From a virus (Duplodnaviria; Heunggongvirae; Uroviricota; Caudoviricetes), in the IMG/VR virus record IMGVR_UViG_2609460354_000008, positions 1 to 28,488 of that record: a DNA stretch of 28,488 nt; one strand, written 5' to 3'. Each line of letters begins with the position of its first letter. Positions within the stretch are counted from its first letter, which is position 1. This document shows positions 1-5,769 of this stretch, piece after piece. The notes beneath the pieces were generated by a model. It was not told the origin of the DNA and did not search any database. It worked only from the letters and a program-made list of their open reading frames with translations. The position numbers and the translations under genes are program-made.

Positions 1-221
1 ACCCGCAAACCACACTTCCCTTTAAAACGCGTAACATACATTGCCTGCGTTTAACTTTCTTTGAACTCTTGCAGAAAAATGAGAATTCGTGAGTACGATC
101 ACTCAAAATCGCCTGGCAAAAATAAAATCACCCTATAGATGCACAAAAAACGGGCAAAACTACCTGGTTCGCAAAACTGCGTCTAAAGTTAAACCGGGAC
201 CTCGCGAGCAAGGGTGAGACG

Positions 222-290
222 ATGGCGCTTTACACAATTGGTGAAGTGGCGTTGCTTTGTGATATTAATCCTGTCACGTTACGCGCGTGA
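222..290 (+). pseudogene. 5' fragment (22 codons then TGA) of a MerR-family HTH regulator gene, MlrA/YehV-like N-terminus (MALYTIGEVALLCDINPVTLRA*); probable host gene interrupted at the prophage boundary
   Basis: ATG at 222 preceded by an AGGGTGAG RBS-like stretch; translation matches the MerR/MlrA-type N-terminal HTH, then stops where LRAWQRRYG would be expected. The match to MlrA is from memory, not a search. Confidence 0.4.
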
Positions 291-483
291 CGCAACATTT
301 TTAAAAATCGACGAAGATCGTCCAGGAGCGCCGTTTTTCAAGGGTTGGATAGATGATTCGTTTACCATGTCGACGAACTTCGACGAATTTCGCCGATAAA
401 AAGTGTCCCATACATGCCCCATTGATGCCCCATAAACAATATCAGGAATTGACACTGGTTATCCATACAGATAAAAATAACAC

Positions 484-499
484 CTGTACATAACTACAG
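484..499. promoter_or_regulatory. LexA (SOS) box CTGT-N8-ACAG upstream of the dinI-like gene, with a TTGACA -35-like hexamer at about 449-454
   Basis: Sequence CTGTACATAACTACAG lies 16 bp upstream of the ATG at 515. AGGAGG RBS at about 504-509. Confidence 0.55.
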
Positions 500-514
500 T
501 TACAGGAGGGTGTT

Positions 515-763
515 ATGCGTGTTGAGATCTGTATCGCTAAAGAAAAAATCACTAAAATGCCAAACGGTGCTGTGGATGCGTTAAAGGAAGAATTAACCCG
601 ACGCATCAGTAAACGTTATGACGATGTAGAGGTGATCGTAAAAGCCACCAGCAACGATGGCCTTTCTGTTACGCGCACCGCCGATAAAGATTCAGCTAAA
701 ACTTTTGTTCAGGAGACTCTGAAAGATACCTGGAAGTCTGCTGACGAGTGGTTTTTTCACTAA
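515..763 (+). CDS. DinI-family DNA-damage-inducible protein (82 aa)
   Basis: Translation [11 protein letters not shown]...[16 protein letters not shown] aligns along its length with DinI (MRIEVTIAK...ETWESADDWF). Strong AGGAGG RBS and an upstream LexA box. Confidence 0.8.
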
Positions 764-866
764 TTAACACGTAAAATCGGTAACGGCTGGAAATCATTCA
801 ATACTCGCACTATCGAAAGTTCGCCAGCCAGCCGTGGCACGTTCTTGCATACGATGTGCTACGGTT

Positions 867-1421
867 TCATTCATCTCCGACCGGAAACTTCTTATACAAA
901 GTCGATACGCCAACATCATAGATGATCACCACCTTCTGGCGAGAAACTCCTGATGCAATTTGTCGTCCGGCCTGCGCCCATTGTTCTGGTGTAAGTTTGG
1001 GACGACGTCCACCAATTCGTCCCTGTGCGCGAGCAGCTTCCAGTCCAGCTTTTGTTCGTTCAACAATCAGTTCTCGTTCCATTTCAGCCAGGGCCCCCAT
1101 CACATGAAAGAAAAAGCGCCCCATTGGGGTACTGGTATCAATTGAATCCGTCAGACTACGAAAGTTGATGCCTCGTTCGCGCAACTCCTCCACCAGCACG
1201 ACAAGATGCCGCATACTGCGCCCCAGTCGGTCCAGTTTCCAGACCACCAGCGTGTCACCTGCCGATAATGTCCTGAGCAGTTTTTTCAGTCCCGGCCTTT
1301 CGGACTTTGTGCCGCTTATCTTGTCTTCAAAAATCAGCTCGCATCCTGCACAGTTCAGCGCATTACGTTGTAGATCTGTGTTCTGGTCATTTGTTGATAC
1401 GCGTACATAGCCAATAAGCAT
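867..1421 (-). CDS. pin: Serine recombinase, Pin/Gin/Hin-family DNA invertase (start set at internal Met MLIGYVRVSTNDQ)
   Basis: N-terminal catalytic motif YVRVSTNDQNTDLQ and C-terminal HTH (VSTLYKK); near-identical along its length to e14 Pin as recalled. Adjacent to a tail-fibre segment bounded by inverted repeats. Confidence 0.9.
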   Translation of the reverse strand: MLIGYVRVSTNDQNTDLQRNALNCAGCELIFEDKISGTKSERPGLKKLLRTLSAGDTLVVWKLDRLGRSMRHLVVLVEELRERGINFRSLTDSIDTSTPMGRFFFHVMGALAEMERELIVERTKAGLEAARAQGRIGGRRPKLTPEQWAQAGRQIASGVSRQKVVIIYDVGVSTLYKKFPVGDE

Positions 1422-1482
1422 GGTAGATCCCCCTGACAAAAGCAGGAATGATGCCATTTGCTCGTTATTTCTGCATTTTCAT

Positions 1483-1502
1483 AAACGTTGGTTTGGGAGA
1501 AG
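1483..1502. repeat. Left crossover site (pix/gix-like) of the invertible tail-fibre segment: AAACGTTGGTTTGGGAGAAG
   Basis: A 15-nt core TTGGTTTGGGAGAAG is present here and in inverted orientation at 3414-3428; both encode the GLGE peptide in the two alternative fibre reading frames. Confidence 0.6.
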
Positions 1503-1942
1503 CGGCAAAACGGAATGTGGGCAACGGGGAAAACCAAATCCCTGATATGTCTTTCTGGACGGTTACTGGTGGCAATGGAAATTTTGTGATTCGTCAACCT
1601 GACGGGCTAATCACTCAGATGGTTACTGTAAGTATAAGCGGTCCAGTGGCGATGAATGGAATGACTGATAATGCTTATGCCATTACAGGTTCTAATAAGT
1701 CTTATATTGCCACAGCCACATTGCCCTTTGTATTTCCTAATAAGGTGCTGGGCGTTATCCCTCTGGTATCAACAACAGCCTATGGTGGTGTATCCAGTAA
1801 TATTACAGGTTCATACGCGACGGCGGTTTGTTCTTTTGCCGCTGTCCGGGGGAATAATACGATTGTATTCAAAGTCGACAAACCACTGAATGCAGCCTTT
1901 CCTTCAGATACCAGCGTCTCAGCGTTAATCATTGGACGGTAA
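1503..1942 (+). CDS. Alternative tail-fibre C-terminal variable segment, silent in this orientation (would fuse to the constant N-terminus after inversion)
   Basis: Plus-strand ORF inside the invertible segment; its NVGLGE matches NLGLGE at the crossover in the expressed fibre; followed by its own tail-fibre assembly gene. Confidence 0.55.
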
Positions 1943-1944
1943 TA

Positions 1945-2388
1945 ATGAACTCAGTATTCTTTTCACCCGGAAGTAAAAGTTTTTATCTACAAGAATTGTT
2001 TCCAGAATATGAGGATGCGGGAACGCTTCCAGATGATGTTATTGAAATTACCCGAGAAACATATGAGAAATTTCTTGGGCTGCATCCAGAAGGGAAAGAA
2101 ATTGGCGCTGACAGTTCAGGACGGCCAATATGGATTAATTCCCCACCGCCTTCAAAAGAGGATGAGGTGTTGATGGCTGAAATGAAAAAAATATCTTTGG
2201 TTTCAGAAGCCAATACTTACATCAATACCCATCAGTGGCCTGGCAAAGCTGCTATTGGTCGTCTGAAAGGTAACGAGCTGGAGCAATATAATTTATGGCT
2301 GGATTATCTGGACGCACTGGAACTGGTTGATCCCTCCAGTGCTCCAGATATTGAATGGCCTACGCCTCCGGCAGTTCAGGCCAGATGA
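1945..2388 (+). CDS. Tail fibre assembly protein (alternative copy, inside the invertible segment)
   Basis: 147 aa; C-terminus ...LWLDYLDALELVDPSSAPDIEWPTPP is Tfa-like and parallels the C-terminus of the convergent copy (AVLDYIDAVTATDTSTAPNVIWPELPEA). Confidence 0.7.
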   Translation: MNSVFFSPGSKSFYLQELFPEYEDAGTLPDDVIEITRETYEKFLGLHPEGKEIGADSSGRPIWINSPPPSKEDEVLMAEMKKISLVSEANTYINTHQWPGKAAIGRLKGNELEQYNLWLDYLDALELVDPSSAPDIEWPTPPAVQAR

Positions 2389-2962
2389 CATTCGGCGCGG
2401 TGCTGGTATCTGTTGCCGTCACCGCGTCAATATAATCCAGCACAGCGTTAAGTCTGGTGTTTTCTGGCTGCGTCAGCTTCCGCCCGGCCTGTAATTTCAG
2501 TTGAATCAGACTGATGGAAGCCATTGCAGCATCAATCAGCGACTGGCGCTGTGCTTCTGCCGCTTCTACTGCGGCGCTATGCTGTGCCTCGGTATCCGTC
2601 ACCCATTTCTCACCATCCCATTTATCGTATGGCGTTAACGGGGCGATAGTGGTTGTATTTTCAGGGTAATCACCCGGAGCTGTGATTTCTTTTGATTCTC
2701 CTGTTTCAGTGCTATAGACCGTTTCACCGCGATGGTCTGGCACATATTCCCATGAGTTAAAATCTGCAGAACGGCAAATTGCATAACCAGCTTTATATGA
2801 GCCAGGAGCATCTAAACAGGAACATGCCGGGATACCGACACCCACAGCAAGATATTCAGTTGATGTGGAAATATATTCTCGTGTTTCACAATCATAGTTA
2901 TAAACGGTAATATTCCCTGCCGCAGTAGCAATCAATTCACTATTTAATTCTGCATTATTCAT
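2360..2962 (-). CDS. Tail fibre assembly protein (copy in the expressed orientation)
   Basis: 200 aa immediately downstream of, and start/stop-overlapping, the tail fibre gene; Tfa-like C-terminus. Confidence 0.75.
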   Translation of the reverse strand: MNNAELNSELIATAAGNITVYNYDCETREYISTSTEYLAVGVGIPACSCLDAPGSYKAGYAICRSADFNSWEYVPDHRGETVYSTETGESKEITAPGDYPENTTTIAPLTPYDKWDGEKWVTDTEAQHSAAVEAAEAQRQSLIDAAMASISLIQLKLQAGRKLTQPENTRLNAVLDYIDAVTATDTSTAPNVIWPELPEA

Positions 2963-3717
2963 TATGCGGCCCTCACGATATAGTTAAATGCAATATTACG
3001 CGGACGAAGTTCTGGTGATACCGGAGTCGAACCGCTGACATTAAACGTGTAATCAAACACGGAACCTGATCCAGATGAAGTAGATAAAGTTTCAGCATTT
3101 TTACTTTTTGCTACAGAAACACCACCTAAACCATTTGTTTGTTTAACAGCAAAAAGACCATTAAACGTTCCTGAAATAGACGGCATACCATGAGATTGCG
3201 CAGTGAGAATCCCCCTGCCACTATCAACGCCTCTTCCATCATCCCAGCCACGCATAAACTCACCACGTAAATCAGGCAATTTATTTGTCGGGTAAGCCTT
3301 TGCCAGTTCTGGGTATTCTTCAGCAGAAAAAGCCGCACCATTGCATTTCAGCCAGCCTGTTGGCGGAGTGGCTGCAGGCCACGGAACAGGCACACCAACG
3401 GGTAACGCCGAACCTTCTCCCAAACCAAGGTTTTCGAGAGCCGTTTTCACCGTGCCGTCCGATTTGATATCGCCAAACGGATTTTTGCGGCTTAACAGCA
3501 GCGCACGAAGCGCGGTAAGCAACTGGTCGTGCCGCCCTTTCTCCAGGCTGGCACCGGAGGCCTCCACAACGCTGCAAAGCTCCTCCTGCAACATGTCAAA
3601 GTAGTCATTATCCAGATCGGTGGCAGGTGTGCCGGTCTGGGGGTTACCACGGGTAAAACCGTTCTTACCCGCGCCGAACTTATCCTTCTGCGCGGTTTTC
3701 GTGTCTATACGATGCAT
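2962..3717 (-). CDS. Tail fibre protein with tail-collar domain; constant N-terminal part (about aa 1-96) outside the invertible segment, variable C-terminal part inside
   Basis: 251 aa; [20 protein letters not shown]...[14 protein letters not shown] matches the phage tail-collar domain; the crossover site lies inside the ORF. Confidence 0.8.
3414..3433. repeat. Right crossover site of the invertible segment (inverted copy of 1483-1502); plus strand reads CCAAACCAAGGTTTTCG around an AA centre, hix/gix-like
   Basis: Reverse complement GAAAACCTTGGTTTGGGAGAAG shares the 15-nt core with the left site. Confidence 0.6.
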
Positions 3718-3720
3718 GAA

Positions 3721-4305
3721 TTACTCCGGATATTTAAAAATTACGTAGGTATGCGACGGGCAGAGTTTGTTAAGCACACACTCGACAACGGTGTCGCCCC
3801 AGATACGCAGTGCGGAATCACAGGGATCGCCACATGTCATCCAGGTGGTGTTGGTGGCGGCTGGCATGTTGACCTGCCAGTAATACCGCCATTCCGGCGC
3901 ATTCACAGCGTCAGTGCAGGCTGATGAGCAGGTGAACGTGCTTTTGTCGTATCGCGTGATGGTAGCGTCTGGTCTGCCCAGGGCAGCAAGCTGTGCAAGG
4001 TAAAAATCCTCATTGATGCCGCCCGCCAGGTTAACCTTCGCATCCAGTCGTTGCTGACGCTGGCGAAGGGTCTGTGTCCCTGCGGGAATACATTCATCCG
4101 GCAGGCCGCACAGACGCTCCCAGCGGTTTATCAGTTCGGTGGTGGTGCGCGGATCCAGCTCCCGCATCAGGGCATCCGCACGCTGATGAACGCGGGTTAA
4201 TGACGGTGCCGAACCGGCAATCGCCGGATCGCTGGCTGACCACGCCGGACCGGGGGGCAACAGTGCAGACAACAGACGGATGTAATCATCGTTTGTCACG
4301 TCCAT
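3721..4305 (-). CDS. Mu gp48-like tail protein (YmfQ/DUF2313-like)
   Basis: 194 aa between the baseplate J-like gene and the tail fibre, the conserved Mu-type position; family call from memory. Confidence 0.6.
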
Positions 4306-5354
4306 GAAATCGTCCCCAGAACCGCCAGTTCATTTTTTGCAATGGAGATATTGTCTGCCGGTGCAAGCAACTGATGGCTGTATTCCCCGTTCGCACCGGA
4401 AATCGCCTCACTGATACGCGACACCTTCAGTTCTCCCTGCGGATAACCATCACGCAGCAGGAACGAACGCAACTCCGCGGTGATGGCAGCCCGTATTTCC
4501 GGTGTATCCGGCGTCACGCGGATATGAAAATCCACTTTATGTGCCACCGGCCTGAACACATACAAGTCAGAGCCTGCCACCGGGGCCAGTGGCCCGATAT
4601 GTTGTCTTGCCGCCGTTTCCGTTGATTCTTCCGGAATGGGATTAATCAGGTCACTGCTGGCAATCATCACACCGACAGTTCCCGTTCCCATCCAGTGACG
4701 GTATGTCCATGCGCGGGTAATGCCGGGCACTTCTTTAGCCCAGACGACATAGTCCCCGTCAGCCCCGCCCTGCGGCGTCCAGTAATACCGCTCAATGACG
4801 CGGGCGCGCCACGTTTCCAGATCTTCAGTATCGAATCCGCCAGTCAGGGTATCTGCAACACCGGAAGACGGCAGACCATTCACCGGCGTGACCAGGATTA
4901 ATGCCGTACCGTCGTCAGCGTTACCGACCGCGCCTGTAGTTGAGCAAGTGATCGGCACACGCAGGACACCACCGGAGCTGGTTGCATCGGCAGTTGCCGT
5001 GTACTGAACCAGGTCATCGCGCTGAATCACGCTCCCGGCGGTCACCTTCAGGCCATCACTGACACCTTCCCAGCGCATATATCCGCTGGCAGCCGTGGCC
5101 CCCTTGCGCGGACACCGTTTCATCGCAGCATGTCGCGCCAGCCAGGACTCATCGCACAGGTCAGGCAGCATGTTCATTGCCAGATAATCGATGTAACCGT
5201 AAACCGTATGCAGCGCCGCCGCATACACCTTTGCCCGCACGTCTTCATCCATGCGCCGGAGCGTGTCGCTGACGTCCAGCCTGGCGAATAAATCGTTACA
5301 GAGCATACTGATATTTTCTGCCAGCGTCGGGCGCTGAAATTCACTGTCCGCCAT
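4296..5354 (-). CDS. Baseplate J-like protein (Mu gp47-like)
   Basis: 352 aa; size and position in a Mu-like baseplate block. Confidence 0.75.
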
Positions 5355-5769
5355 GCGTTATCGCACTCCACAGATCATCAAAAGAAATCATTACCGGTCC
5401 GTCACGACGCCAGAGAGTGATACTGTTACCCAGTTCATTAATCCCGGTGCGGCGGATATCCAGATCAATACGGGACACCACGCCGTCATCAATCATCCAT
5501 TGCAGGCATTCGCGGATATACCCCCTTACCGTCTGCACCAGCTGATTGGTCAGTTTGCTGCGCTGAAGCAGCCACAGTCGGGAGCCGTAACGGTCATTCT
5601 GTACCGCAGGCCAGGTATCCCCCCACCATCCCATCGGGACGTCGGCGTTGTCATCAGGCTCCGCCCGCCGCCAGGTGAACAGGGAAATCACCACGGCGCG
5701 GGTCAGCGGATCCAGCGGTGCGCTGGCGCAGGTGCGTTTACCGTTCACCGTCAGCCACAGTTCCATCAT
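5341..5769 (-). CDS. Baseplate wedge protein (Mu gp46-like)
   Basis: 142 aa; conserved position between the spike and J-like genes. Confidence 0.65.
   Translation of the reverse strand: MMELWLTVNGKRTCASAPLDPLTRAVVISLFTWRRAEPDDNADVPMGWWGDTWPAVQNDRYGSRLWLLQRSKLTNQLVQTVRGYIRECLQWMIDDGVVSRIDLDIRRTGINELGNSITLWRRDGPVMISFDDLWSAITHGGQ

Follow-up and report, generated by a model that had tools for sequence, protein, structure and literature searches.

The stretch of DNA that we analysed, hereafter the window, is 28,488 nucleotides long and carries an E. coli prophage inserted in mlrA. The junction between the two lies at 289/290, next to btsS, which is not the icd location used by e14. Judged by homology to annotated relatives, its genes for tail, head, terminase and portal are all in place. 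At the end of the Mu-type contractile-tail module of this complete-looking prophage sits a DNA-inversion switch, composed of an invertase gene (pin), two inverted crossover sites and, between these, two convergent cassettes that each pair a tail-fibre C-terminus with a Tfa chaperone. DNA-flipping tail-fibre switches of the e14 type were first described in the 1980s, and Pin, Gin and Cin are classical examples of invertases that swap fibres.

The two crossover sites are each 26 bp long. The pin-proximal site (1476–1501) reads TTCTCCCAAACC AA CGTTTATGAAAA on the minus strand, with its central dinucleotide at 1488–1489. The distal site (3415–3440) lies within the fibre gene and reads TTCTCCCAAACC AA GGTTTTCGAGAG on the plus strand, with its central dinucleotide at 3427–3428. 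Comparison of the sequences places 12-bp half-sites around a 2-bp core, which is AA in both cases, and this 12-2-12 layout aligns with that of gix in Mu and cix in P1. Neither site differs by a single base from its pix counterpart in the e14 element of E. coli K-12, where one lies adjacent to pinE and the other within stfP. The original prediction had placed 20-bp inverted sites at 1483–1502 and 3414–3433, sharing a 15-nt core, at the GLGE peptide of the fibre coding sequence. This repeat pair is real. It is complementary at 19 of the 20 bases, the core CTTCTCCCAAACCAA is perfect, and the codons at the repeats are those of ...NLGLGE... and ...NVGLGE.... The functional sites are, however, the 26-bp elements and not the 20-bp repeats.

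A 19-nt site pattern, searched with up to three mismatches, matches twice in the 28.5-kb window and not once in 100 shuffles. Site-specific inversion also swaps the C-terminal cassettes of adhesins and fibres in p15B Min and in the plasmid shufflons, where there are many crossover sites and several cassettes. Multiple inversion of this kind is ruled out here, as 28.5 kb of sequence contain only two sites and the switch can therefore have just two states. Measured from centre to centre, the invertible segment (1489–3427, with no strand of its own) is 1939 bp long, and 1911 bp lie between the 20-nt repeat arms. Four open reading frames (ORFs) occupy it completely.

In the present assembly the tail-fibre gene (2962–3717, minus strand, 251 aa) joins a constant N-terminus (3429–3717) to a variable C-terminus (2962–3426) with a Pfam Collar domain. 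It is thus the minus-strand variable part that is fused to the constant N-terminus, as had been predicted. Identity to K-12 StfP is 96% over residues 1–105, and the C-terminal part forms a mosaic, StfE-like tip with 60% identity to K-12 StfE. Among known structures the fibre matches the tip of T4 gp37 (PDB 2xgf, 9e-15), and its N-terminus resembles Mu S (5yvq) in a weak match. The chaperone of the same cassette (2360–2962, minus strand, 200 aa; Caudo_TAP, 4.1e-32) is TfaE-like, with 91% identity to K-12 TfaE. Its start overlaps the stop codon of the fibre gene by one base, and its 3′ end shares 29 bp with the convergent tfa.

The second cassette is read from the plus strand. The original prediction of two convergent cassettes gave its ORFs and families correctly and began the alternative C-terminus at 1503; this part is in frame from 1502 instead, and translation in the 1503–1942 frame contains eight stops. 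Nor is it a bare fragment, since it forms the 3′ portion of an ORF (1448–1942, plus strand, 164 aa) that starts with ATG and spans the pin-proximal site, with the crossover at 1488–1489. This ORF opens with an 18-aa leader, MMPFARYFCIFINVGLGE, identical to the K-12 leader at 16 of 18 residues, and then continues into the unfused fibre C-terminus. Its counterpart is an annotated CDS in related genomes. The ORF belongs with PHROG 12714 and the tail-fibre family phrog_1396, and has a weak Pfam match to Gp53-like_C (3.5e-4, under the family cut-off). A sequence search of the PDB with the alternative fibre gave only one weak match, in which the constant part resembles Mu S. The neighbouring Tfa chaperone (1945–2388, plus strand, 147 aa; Caudo_TAP, 3.2e-27; phrog_188) is 56% identical to K-12 TfaP, chiefly in the C-terminal half. 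The expected difference between the two fibre C-termini is borne out, with a T4 gp37-like Collar domain on one side and the weak Gp53-like_C match on the other. The two cassettes may also differ in receptor specificity. Flipping the segment in silico keeps the frame and yields an intact fibre ORF of ~245 aa.

A consensus scan for promoters and terminators across 700–4400 produced no more hits than shuffled sequence, and none was usefully placed for pin or the 1448 ORF. Since nothing rose above chance, it is from the operon layout that we infer pin and the two cassettes to be expressed.

The Pin-type invertase gene was correctly placed beside the segment. It encodes a serine DNA invertase of 184 aa (pin, 867–1421, minus strand) with Pfam Resolvase (1.3e-51) and HTH_7 domains, and it matches the Gin structures 3uj3 and 4m6f at an E-value of 1e-91. 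In alignments the protein is 95% identical to PinE of K-12, of which it is the orthologue, 81% to Cin, 77% to Gin and 64% to Hin. Residues R7, S9, D64, R65, H106, M114, Q150 and R153 are those found in essentially all of 120 homologue clusters, and R68 is conserved in 118 of them. The basic patch on helix B (Hin 47, 48 and 51), read off the alignment, is present as K46, K47 and R50.

A putative recombinational (Fis) enhancer lies within the 5′ end of pin (1332–1403, minus strand; pin nt 19–90). The 5′ ends of pin, gin and cin align without gaps, and in the P1 record the Cin enhancer is assigned to cin nt 19–90, within the 5′ end of the invertase gene as we propose here. The first 170 nt of pin are identical to K-12 pinE. 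Two candidate Fis sites of the form G-N13-C (1386–1400 and 1337–1351) together span 64 bp, and the centre of the first is 95.5 bp from the crossover centre. Spacings derived by hand from the K-12 and Mu sequences are also 95.5 bp, and the Hin enhancer, for comparison, is 65 bp long and ~100 bp from hix. Going by the alignment, Fis may bind the candidate sites.

The closest known system is the e14 P segment of K-12 (pinE, stfE, tfaE, tfaP and stfP/ycfK), for which the literature cites Plasterk & van de Putte 1985 and Mehta et al. 2004. Its gene order is the same as in the window, and so are the 18-aa leader next to pin and the 29-bp convergent overlap of the tfa genes. The window has the pix sites, the PinE orthologue and the StfP-type constant N-terminus of this system, and it lacks K-12's own cassette pair (stfE/tfaE with stfP/tfaP). 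In place of the StfP/TfaP cassette there is an unrelated C-terminus, without a blastp match to K-12 StfP at E 1e-3, together with the 56%-identical Tfa. The segment between the repeats is 1797 bp in K-12, against 1911 bp here, and is in the opposite orientation in the MG1655 reference. Differences between Pin itself and K-12 PinE include L154Q and A165V. Finally, the K-12 e14 is a defective element annotated adjoining icdC, whereas the present host of the switch is a complete-looking, Mu-tailed prophage in mlrA.

The other members of this group are more distant. The Mu G region is collinear with the window (gp47, gp48, Sc|Sv, U, U′, S′v, gin), and gin, like pin, is read away from the segment. 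Mu also has 26-bp sites with a 2-bp core, although the core is GA rather than AA. The G segment is ~3 kb, with much longer fibres whose variable domains are unrelated to those of the window. The P1 C segment shares the site family and the AA/TT core (cixR is TTCTCTTAAACC AA GGTATTGGATAA), and the crossover annotated for P1 falls between the two bases of this core. Unlike pin, P1 cin is read towards its segment, which is 4.2 kb, and overlaps cixL with its 3′ end. Hin of Salmonella is of the same enzyme family and uses the same invertasome mechanism; the functional data on Q151, R154 and L155 come from this enzyme. It differs in that hin lies inside its segment and flips the promoter of flagellin genes, while here pin is outside and fibre coding sequence is flipped. 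The e14-identical sites, the layout shared with gix and cix, and the Mu-collinear genes bear out the architecture of Mu G, P1 C and e14 P that was originally proposed.

We conclude that the locus is very probably an e14-type P inversion system, one of the Hin/Gin/Cin/Pin family of Fis- and enhancer-dependent serine invertase switches. The switch is already known, as the e14 P segment, because it has pix-identical sites, a Pin 95% identical to PinE, the gene order of Mu G and documented flipping. Its anatomy is directly established, and both sites and pin nt 1–170 are identical to those of the experimentally invertible element of K-12. By the mechanism that we propose, Pin dimers would bind the two inverted 26-bp sites and, with Fis on the enhancer in the 5′ end of pin, the bound sites would assemble into an invertasome. 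Both sites would then be cut at the central AA/TT dinucleotide and one half rotated by 180 degrees, flipping the 1939-bp segment. Because one site is within the fibre gene, at the GLGE codons, the flip would swap the fibre C-terminus, joining a baseplate-proximal constant part of ~96 aa to either of two receptor-binding C-termini that are unrelated to each other and setting the matching Tfa chaperone directly 3′ of the fibre gene. In the present state the Collar-type (StfE-like) tip and the TfaE-like chaperone would be ON, with the other cassette parked beside pin behind the 18-aa leader.

Natural inversion of this cassette pair can be seen among E. coli genomes. Complete E. coli genomes with the same pair include 35 in the orientation of the window and 18 in the opposite one. 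Cn5 and IrN have identical flanking protein accessions, and their aligned interiors are 100%-identical reverse complements; the breakpoints fall inside the sites, at the central dinucleotide. The annotations of 23CRST031 and 23CRST027 provide a second near-clonal pair that, like the first, differs only by an exact inversion. In cultures of MG1655 both e14 orientations have been detected by PCR and whole-genome sequencing (PMC4272514). By qPCR, ~30% of the e14 segment is inverted in the wild type; deletion of pinE locks it, and PinQ of another prophage flips it in trans (PMC12529663).

One feature of the window's own Pin sets it apart. Position 154 is Gln, where each of the 120 closest homologue clusters has Leu, as do PinE, Gin, Cin and Hin, and position 165 is Val, where 119 of the 120 have Ala. 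Both changes are in the DNA-binding domain and private to this allele. L154Q takes two base changes. Relative to the nearest PinE, all six amino-acid differences fall within codons 154–184, where there are also three synonymous changes. Leu154 is the equivalent of Hin Leu155, which makes the Fis contact (PMC3798978), so the Fis-contact set of Pin, with Q150 and R153 kept, is incomplete. In Hin, substitution of L155 by A, V, G, S, T, K or R left the enzyme nearly inactive in every case, and H107Y rescued it (PMC3798978). As an invariant Leu has become Gln and the substitutions tested in Hin nearly abolish inversion, we think it fairly probable that Fis can activate inversion by the window's own Pin only very poorly; Gln was not among the residues tried at Hin L155, and the effect in Pin is extrapolated from Hin. 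The original prediction would have been challenged by an inactive invertase, such as one with a mutated catalytic Ser. The catalytic Ser9 has been kept and the Fis-contact Leu154 lost, and for this reason the description of the segment as Pin-controlled is uncertain for this copy. With such an attenuation, flipping in the window's strain would be slow, or would need a related invertase to act in trans. As nothing is damaged in the cis elements, such invertases could still flip the segment.

How far this change matters separates the P inversion system, as described above, from its nearest rival, in which the switch is structurally complete and yet has no meaningful flipping rate in this strain. 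The prophage would then be fixed on the Collar-type fibre because the resident Pin has lost Fis activation through L154Q and perhaps A165V. The uniqueness of Q154 and V165 among the 120 clusters, the two-base nature of L154Q, the run of amino-acid changes in codons 154–184 and the nearly dead Hin mutants all fit this account. A look-up of the exact Pin allele found two contigs, both in the window's orientation, the Logan contig is unbroken across both junctions, and the window contains no second invertase gene. Two contigs from one or two samples are nonetheless too few to establish locking. Hin L155 mutants, moreover, retain residual inversion in vivo, scored as ‘+/-’ (PMC3798978), and both cassettes here are intact ORFs with coupled chaperones. 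The action of PinQ on the e14 segment in trans also weighs against a locked state, and E. coli genomes usually have several related invertase loci, with a median of two matching places per genome. We regard a locked relic as unlikely, though less so than the readings that follow. One of these attributes the repeats to a conserved LGLGE junction between fibre-gene modules, with the inversion RecA-dependent or an artefact of assembly. The distal site does coincide with a module boundary, since the stf/tfa similarity to HK97 and P2-like phages, some without an invertase, stops at ~3433–3439 and similarity of the E. coli genome H89 to the prophage begins at 3410. Even so, RecA would need far more than a perfect core of 15 nt to recombine efficiently, the full 26-bp dyad has the layout of gix and cix, and an invertase gene with an aligned putative enhancer is only 55 bp away. 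The locking of the K-12 segment by deletion of pinE (PMC12529663) and the Cn5/IrN breakpoints at the central dinucleotide make this explanation close to untenable.

A further reading, compatible with a host-range switch, treats ORF 1448–1942 as an analogue of StfE2, such that inversion toggles a receptor-masking protein to the benefit of the lysogen. Kirigo et al. 2025 reported that StfE2, the stfE leader fused to the gp53-like C-terminus of StfP, arises when the e14 P segment inverts, and that its production lowers adsorption of T2; a block of adsorption is reported for T2 and other phages (PMC12529663). The near-identical leader and the equivalent orientation, with a StfE-type tip on the constant part and a gp53-like-type tip on the leader, speak for a similar role here. 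The parallel is weakened by the absence of detectable blastp similarity between the window's gp53-like cassette and K-12 StfP, by a Gp53-like_C match under the family cut-off and by a promoter scan that found nothing for this ORF. Its AGGA directly abuts the first ATG and is 3 nt before the second, a poor spacing in either case. The published StfE2 effect comes from plasmid overproduction and docking (PMC12529663), and for a prophage that looks complete a virion function is a sufficient explanation of the locus. We consider the defence reading improbable. A combination of the two ideas, in which a Pin without its Fis contact (L154Q with A165V) holds the prophage in one state and so turns a host-range switch into a fixed module for defence of the lysogen, seems to us very doubtful. 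Were it true, the Collar-type fibre would stay ON and the leader-plus-gp53-like ORF beside pin could form a standing, StfE2-like block to adsorption of other phages. Just as doubtful is the alternative that Q154 marks a Pin activated otherwise than through the Fis β-hairpin.

As a system, the P inversion switch of the window is nothing new, and dozens of complete E. coli genomes already contain its cassette pair under the annotation pinE/tfaE. Its only unusual point is the L154Q mutation of Pin, which is likely to be crippling. The main use of the result is for annotators, who should treat the fibre gene and the ‘hypothetical protein’ beside it as alternative states of a single switch, and apparent ‘differences’ between strains at the locus as phase states and not mutations. 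In addition, a private change at a Fis-activation residue that is essential in Hin offers a natural test of whether this contact matters as much in Pin, and of whether the invertases of other prophages keep resident switches running.

No phage record spans at least 80% of positions 800–3800 in a megablast search, and this region has only mosaic pieces in common with P2-like phages, HK97/HK106 and a hin-carrying Salmonella phage. The best matches to the prophage among complete E. coli genomes have ~96–97% identity over 86–92% of the query. RM10410 matches positions 1–520 of the window at 100%, but the prophage in its mlrA, at the same site, is another one, of the lambda-J type.

The switch in the window is the P segment of e14, of the Mu G type, a system that is already known. 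Its identity is settled by a comparison with E. coli K-12 MG1655, whose e14 prophage has exactly the same two 26-bp crossover sites, one within stfP and one beside pinE. PinE is 95% identical to the window's invertase Pin, StfP is 96% identical to the constant N-terminus of the fibre over 105 residues, TfaE is 91% identical to the 200-aa chaperone, and 16 of the 18 residues of the leader that precedes the pin-proximal site are the same. StfE is 60% identical to the Collar-type tip, which is a mosaic in the window. The second cassette is a different module from that of K-12: for its C-terminus blastp finds no match to K-12 StfP, and its chaperone shares 56% identity with TfaP, most of it in the C-terminal half. 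The MG1655 reference is in the opposite orientation to the window, where the StfE-type tip is joined to the constant part. The original prediction, an invertible fibre segment beside a Pin-type invertase gene, is confirmed as an observation, and its interpretation is supported.

The segment is wholly filled by four ORFs. On the minus strand are the Collar-domain part of a 251-aa fibre gene (2962-3717) and a Tfa chaperone gene (2360-2962, Caudo_TAP). The plus strand carries an alternative fibre C-terminus, whose match to Gp53-like_C is weak and falls short of the family cut-off, and a second Tfa gene (1945-2388, Caudo_TAP), and pin (Resolvase and HTH_7) lies alongside at 867-1421 on the minus strand. 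These are the predicted ORFs and families; the sole coordinate error was the start of the alternative C-terminus, placed at 1503, as the frame opens at 1502. Each fibre part is translationally coupled to its own chaperone, at the junctions TAATG and TAATAATG. The neighbours encode Mu gp48 (YmfQ), baseplate J/gp47, gp46, baseplate V, a DNA circularization protein, tape measure, tube and sheath, and the Mu G region is collinear with the window from gp47 through gp48, fibre, tfa, tfa' and Sv' to the invertase. The convergent tfa genes overlap by 29 bp (2360-2388), an overlap that K-12 e14 keeps (4518-4546 of the e14 region, L002). This DNA is read as ...WPTPPAVQAR* on one strand and as ...IWPELPEA* on the opposite one. 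Nearby, an 18-nt inverted repeat (2298-2315/2424-2441) reflects an LDY(L/I)DA motif common to both chaperones.

The predicted inverted sites, 1483-1502 and 3414-3433, were borne out by a repeat finder, which pairs 19 of 20 bases, with 1911 nt separating the two arms. With up to three mismatches, the 19-nt site pattern occurs at these two places only in the whole 28,488-bp window, and never in 100 dinucleotide-preserving shuffles. Each full site is 26 bp, with two 12-bp half-sites flanking a 2-bp core. Read on the strand running into the segment, the distal site (3415-3440) is TTCTCCCAAACC AA GGTTTTCGAGAG and the pin-proximal site (1476-1501, reverse complement) is TTCTCCCAAACC AA CGTTTATGAAAA, so that the inner half-sites and core are identical and the outer half-sites differ. 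The pin-proximal site spans the codons F I N V G L G E A A, and the distal site spans codons of the fibre gene that include GLGE. This layout is common to Mu gix (TTCCTGTAAACC GA GGTTTTGGATAA), P1 cixL (TTCTCTTAAACC AA GGTTTAGGATTG) and P1 cixR (TTCTCTTAAACC AA GGTATTGGATAA); according to the P1 record, crossover falls between the two central bases.

When 800-3800 is flipped in silico, the fibre ORF stays intact, at about 245 aa. When both versions were searched against 5,426 complete E. coli genomes, the window orientation was found in 35 and the flipped orientation in 18 (at least 80% coverage), and the best overall match was to the flipped version (H31; 99% coverage, 96.3% identity, in one piece). 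Direct evidence of natural inversion comes from two near-clonal strain pairs. In strains Cn5 and IrN the prophage occupies the same chromosomal position, all flanking genes having identical protein accessions, and the interiors of their segments are exact reverse complements (100% identity), identity ending on both sides at the base adjoining the central dinucleotide. Annotation indicates the same swap between 23CRST031 and 23CRST027, which have their flanks in common, a frameshifted ymfQ among them. As this baseplate gp48 gene is frameshifted in both, their prophage is probably already defective, yet the switch keeps flipping; their pinE products have different protein accessions. E. coli CD45 (NZ_CP182220.1; H20, H41) has two switch copies at different places, one per orientation. 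Both e14 orientations coexist in MG1655-derived cultures (PMC4272514). In wild-type K-12 about 30% inversion was measured by qPCR, deleting pinE locks the segment, and PinQ, encoded by another prophage, is able to invert it in trans (PMC12529663).

In the P1 record, the Cin enhancer occupies cin nt 19-90. An ungapped alignment of the 5' ends of pin, gin and cin places its counterpart in the window at 1332-1403, a stretch that holds two G-N13-C 15-mers (pin nt 22-36 and 71-85) spanning 64 bp. The Hin enhancer is 65 bp, with a Fis site at either end, and lies ~100 bp from hix (PMC3798978). In the window 95.5 bp separate the crossover centre from the middle of the first candidate Fis site, a spacing that is equal in K-12 and Mu (derived by hand from coordinates); we infer that Fis binds these candidate sites. 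The first 170 nt of pin (1252-1421) are 100% identical to K-12 pinE, a functional element, and beyond them pin differs from pinE at 32 codons; the chance of such a difference-free stretch is about 1e-5. Since a relative (H1) differs within it, at codons 7, 8, 37 and 43, the pattern resembles a mosaic left by recombination more than the effect of enhancer constraint alone.

Inactivation through a mutated catalytic Ser, named beforehand as an observation that would count against the switch, was not seen: the catalytic domain is normal, with R7, S9, D64, R65, R68, H106 and M114 matching the family. Residues 1-153 are identical to PinE of strain PRO_A-1443, and Pin therefore carries no known hyperactivating change. 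It differs from the nearest PinE by six amino acids, all within codons 154-184. Position 154, in the DNA-binding domain, is Gln, and is Leu in PinE of K-12, Cn5 and PRO_A-1443, in Gin, Cin and Hin, and in all 120 of the best homologue clusters (83-97% identity). The change takes two bases (TTA to CAA). Position 165 is Val, compared with Ala in 119 of the 120 clusters. Pin 154 corresponds to Hin Leu155, a numbering checked against the published residues and the offset to 1hcr, a structure of the Hin DNA-binding domain. In Hin this Leu touches the beta-hairpin arm of Fis; substitution by A, V, G, S, T, K or R nearly abolishes Fis-activated inversion, the drop for L155A is >50-fold, and the Fis-independent H107Y rescues the defect (McLean et al. 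2013, PMC3798978). The exact Pin protein occurs in two contigs only, from one or two samples, both in the window orientation. An independent Logan contig runs unbroken through both junctions, which is weak evidence against a large inverted subpopulation. Given the Gln, the Hin results and these allele observations, we think that the resident Pin is probably strongly attenuated. No second invertase gene is encoded in the window; because the cis elements are intact and identical to those of K-12, a related invertase from another genomic locus could still invert the segment. The private L154Q is the only item here that merits a bench test.

The Collar-type tip resembles a T4 gp37 tip fragment (2xgf, 9e-15) and a short tail fibre (9cuy, 5e-23), and the other tip has weak matches only, to Gp53-like_C and a tail-fibre PHROG. 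The two tips probably recognise different receptors. Not exclusive of this, the leader ORF (1448-1942, plus strand) might act in defence like K-12 StfE2, a pin-proximal leader plus gp53-like tip that is reported to keep T2 and other phages from adsorbing (Kirigo et al. 2025, PMC12529663). The window is in the orientation equivalent to the StfE2-forming one, but its gp53-like part is unrelated in sequence to that of K-12 and a promoter scan found none, and we regard such a role as unlikely. The four cassette genes (1502-3427) have a G+C of 44-48%, compared with 55-58% for the constant fibre part and baseplate genes (3428-5354), and similarity to one genome (H89) begins only at 3410; together these suggest that cassettes were replaced exactly at the crossover site. 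Fibre tips are known to be exchanged horizontally at this junction. The cassette G+C fits this, as do cassette pieces common to HK97, HK106 and P2-like phages, whose similarity ends at the crossover site.

Window 1-289 comprises the btsS-mlrA intergenic region and the first mlrA codons, and thus the prophage is inserted in mlrA (yehV), the gene of a curli regulator. Thousands of E. coli genomes have an uninterrupted mlrA, and its similarity to the window ends at base 289, and btsS (yehU) lies just past the left end. Window 1-5421 is 100% identical to contig JNPG01000043.1 of NCBI assembly GCA_000703745.1. The mlrA junction and dinI-side prophage end (1-520) are covered to at least 80% in 475 complete genomes. 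A DinI-like gene (515-763, plus strand; 82 aa, Pfam DinI 1.1e-18) lies between pin and the attachment junction, a place where one would expect a moron (accessory cargo gene), and in strain RM10410 this gene also stands at the end of another prophage, of lambda-J type, inserted at the same mlrA site.
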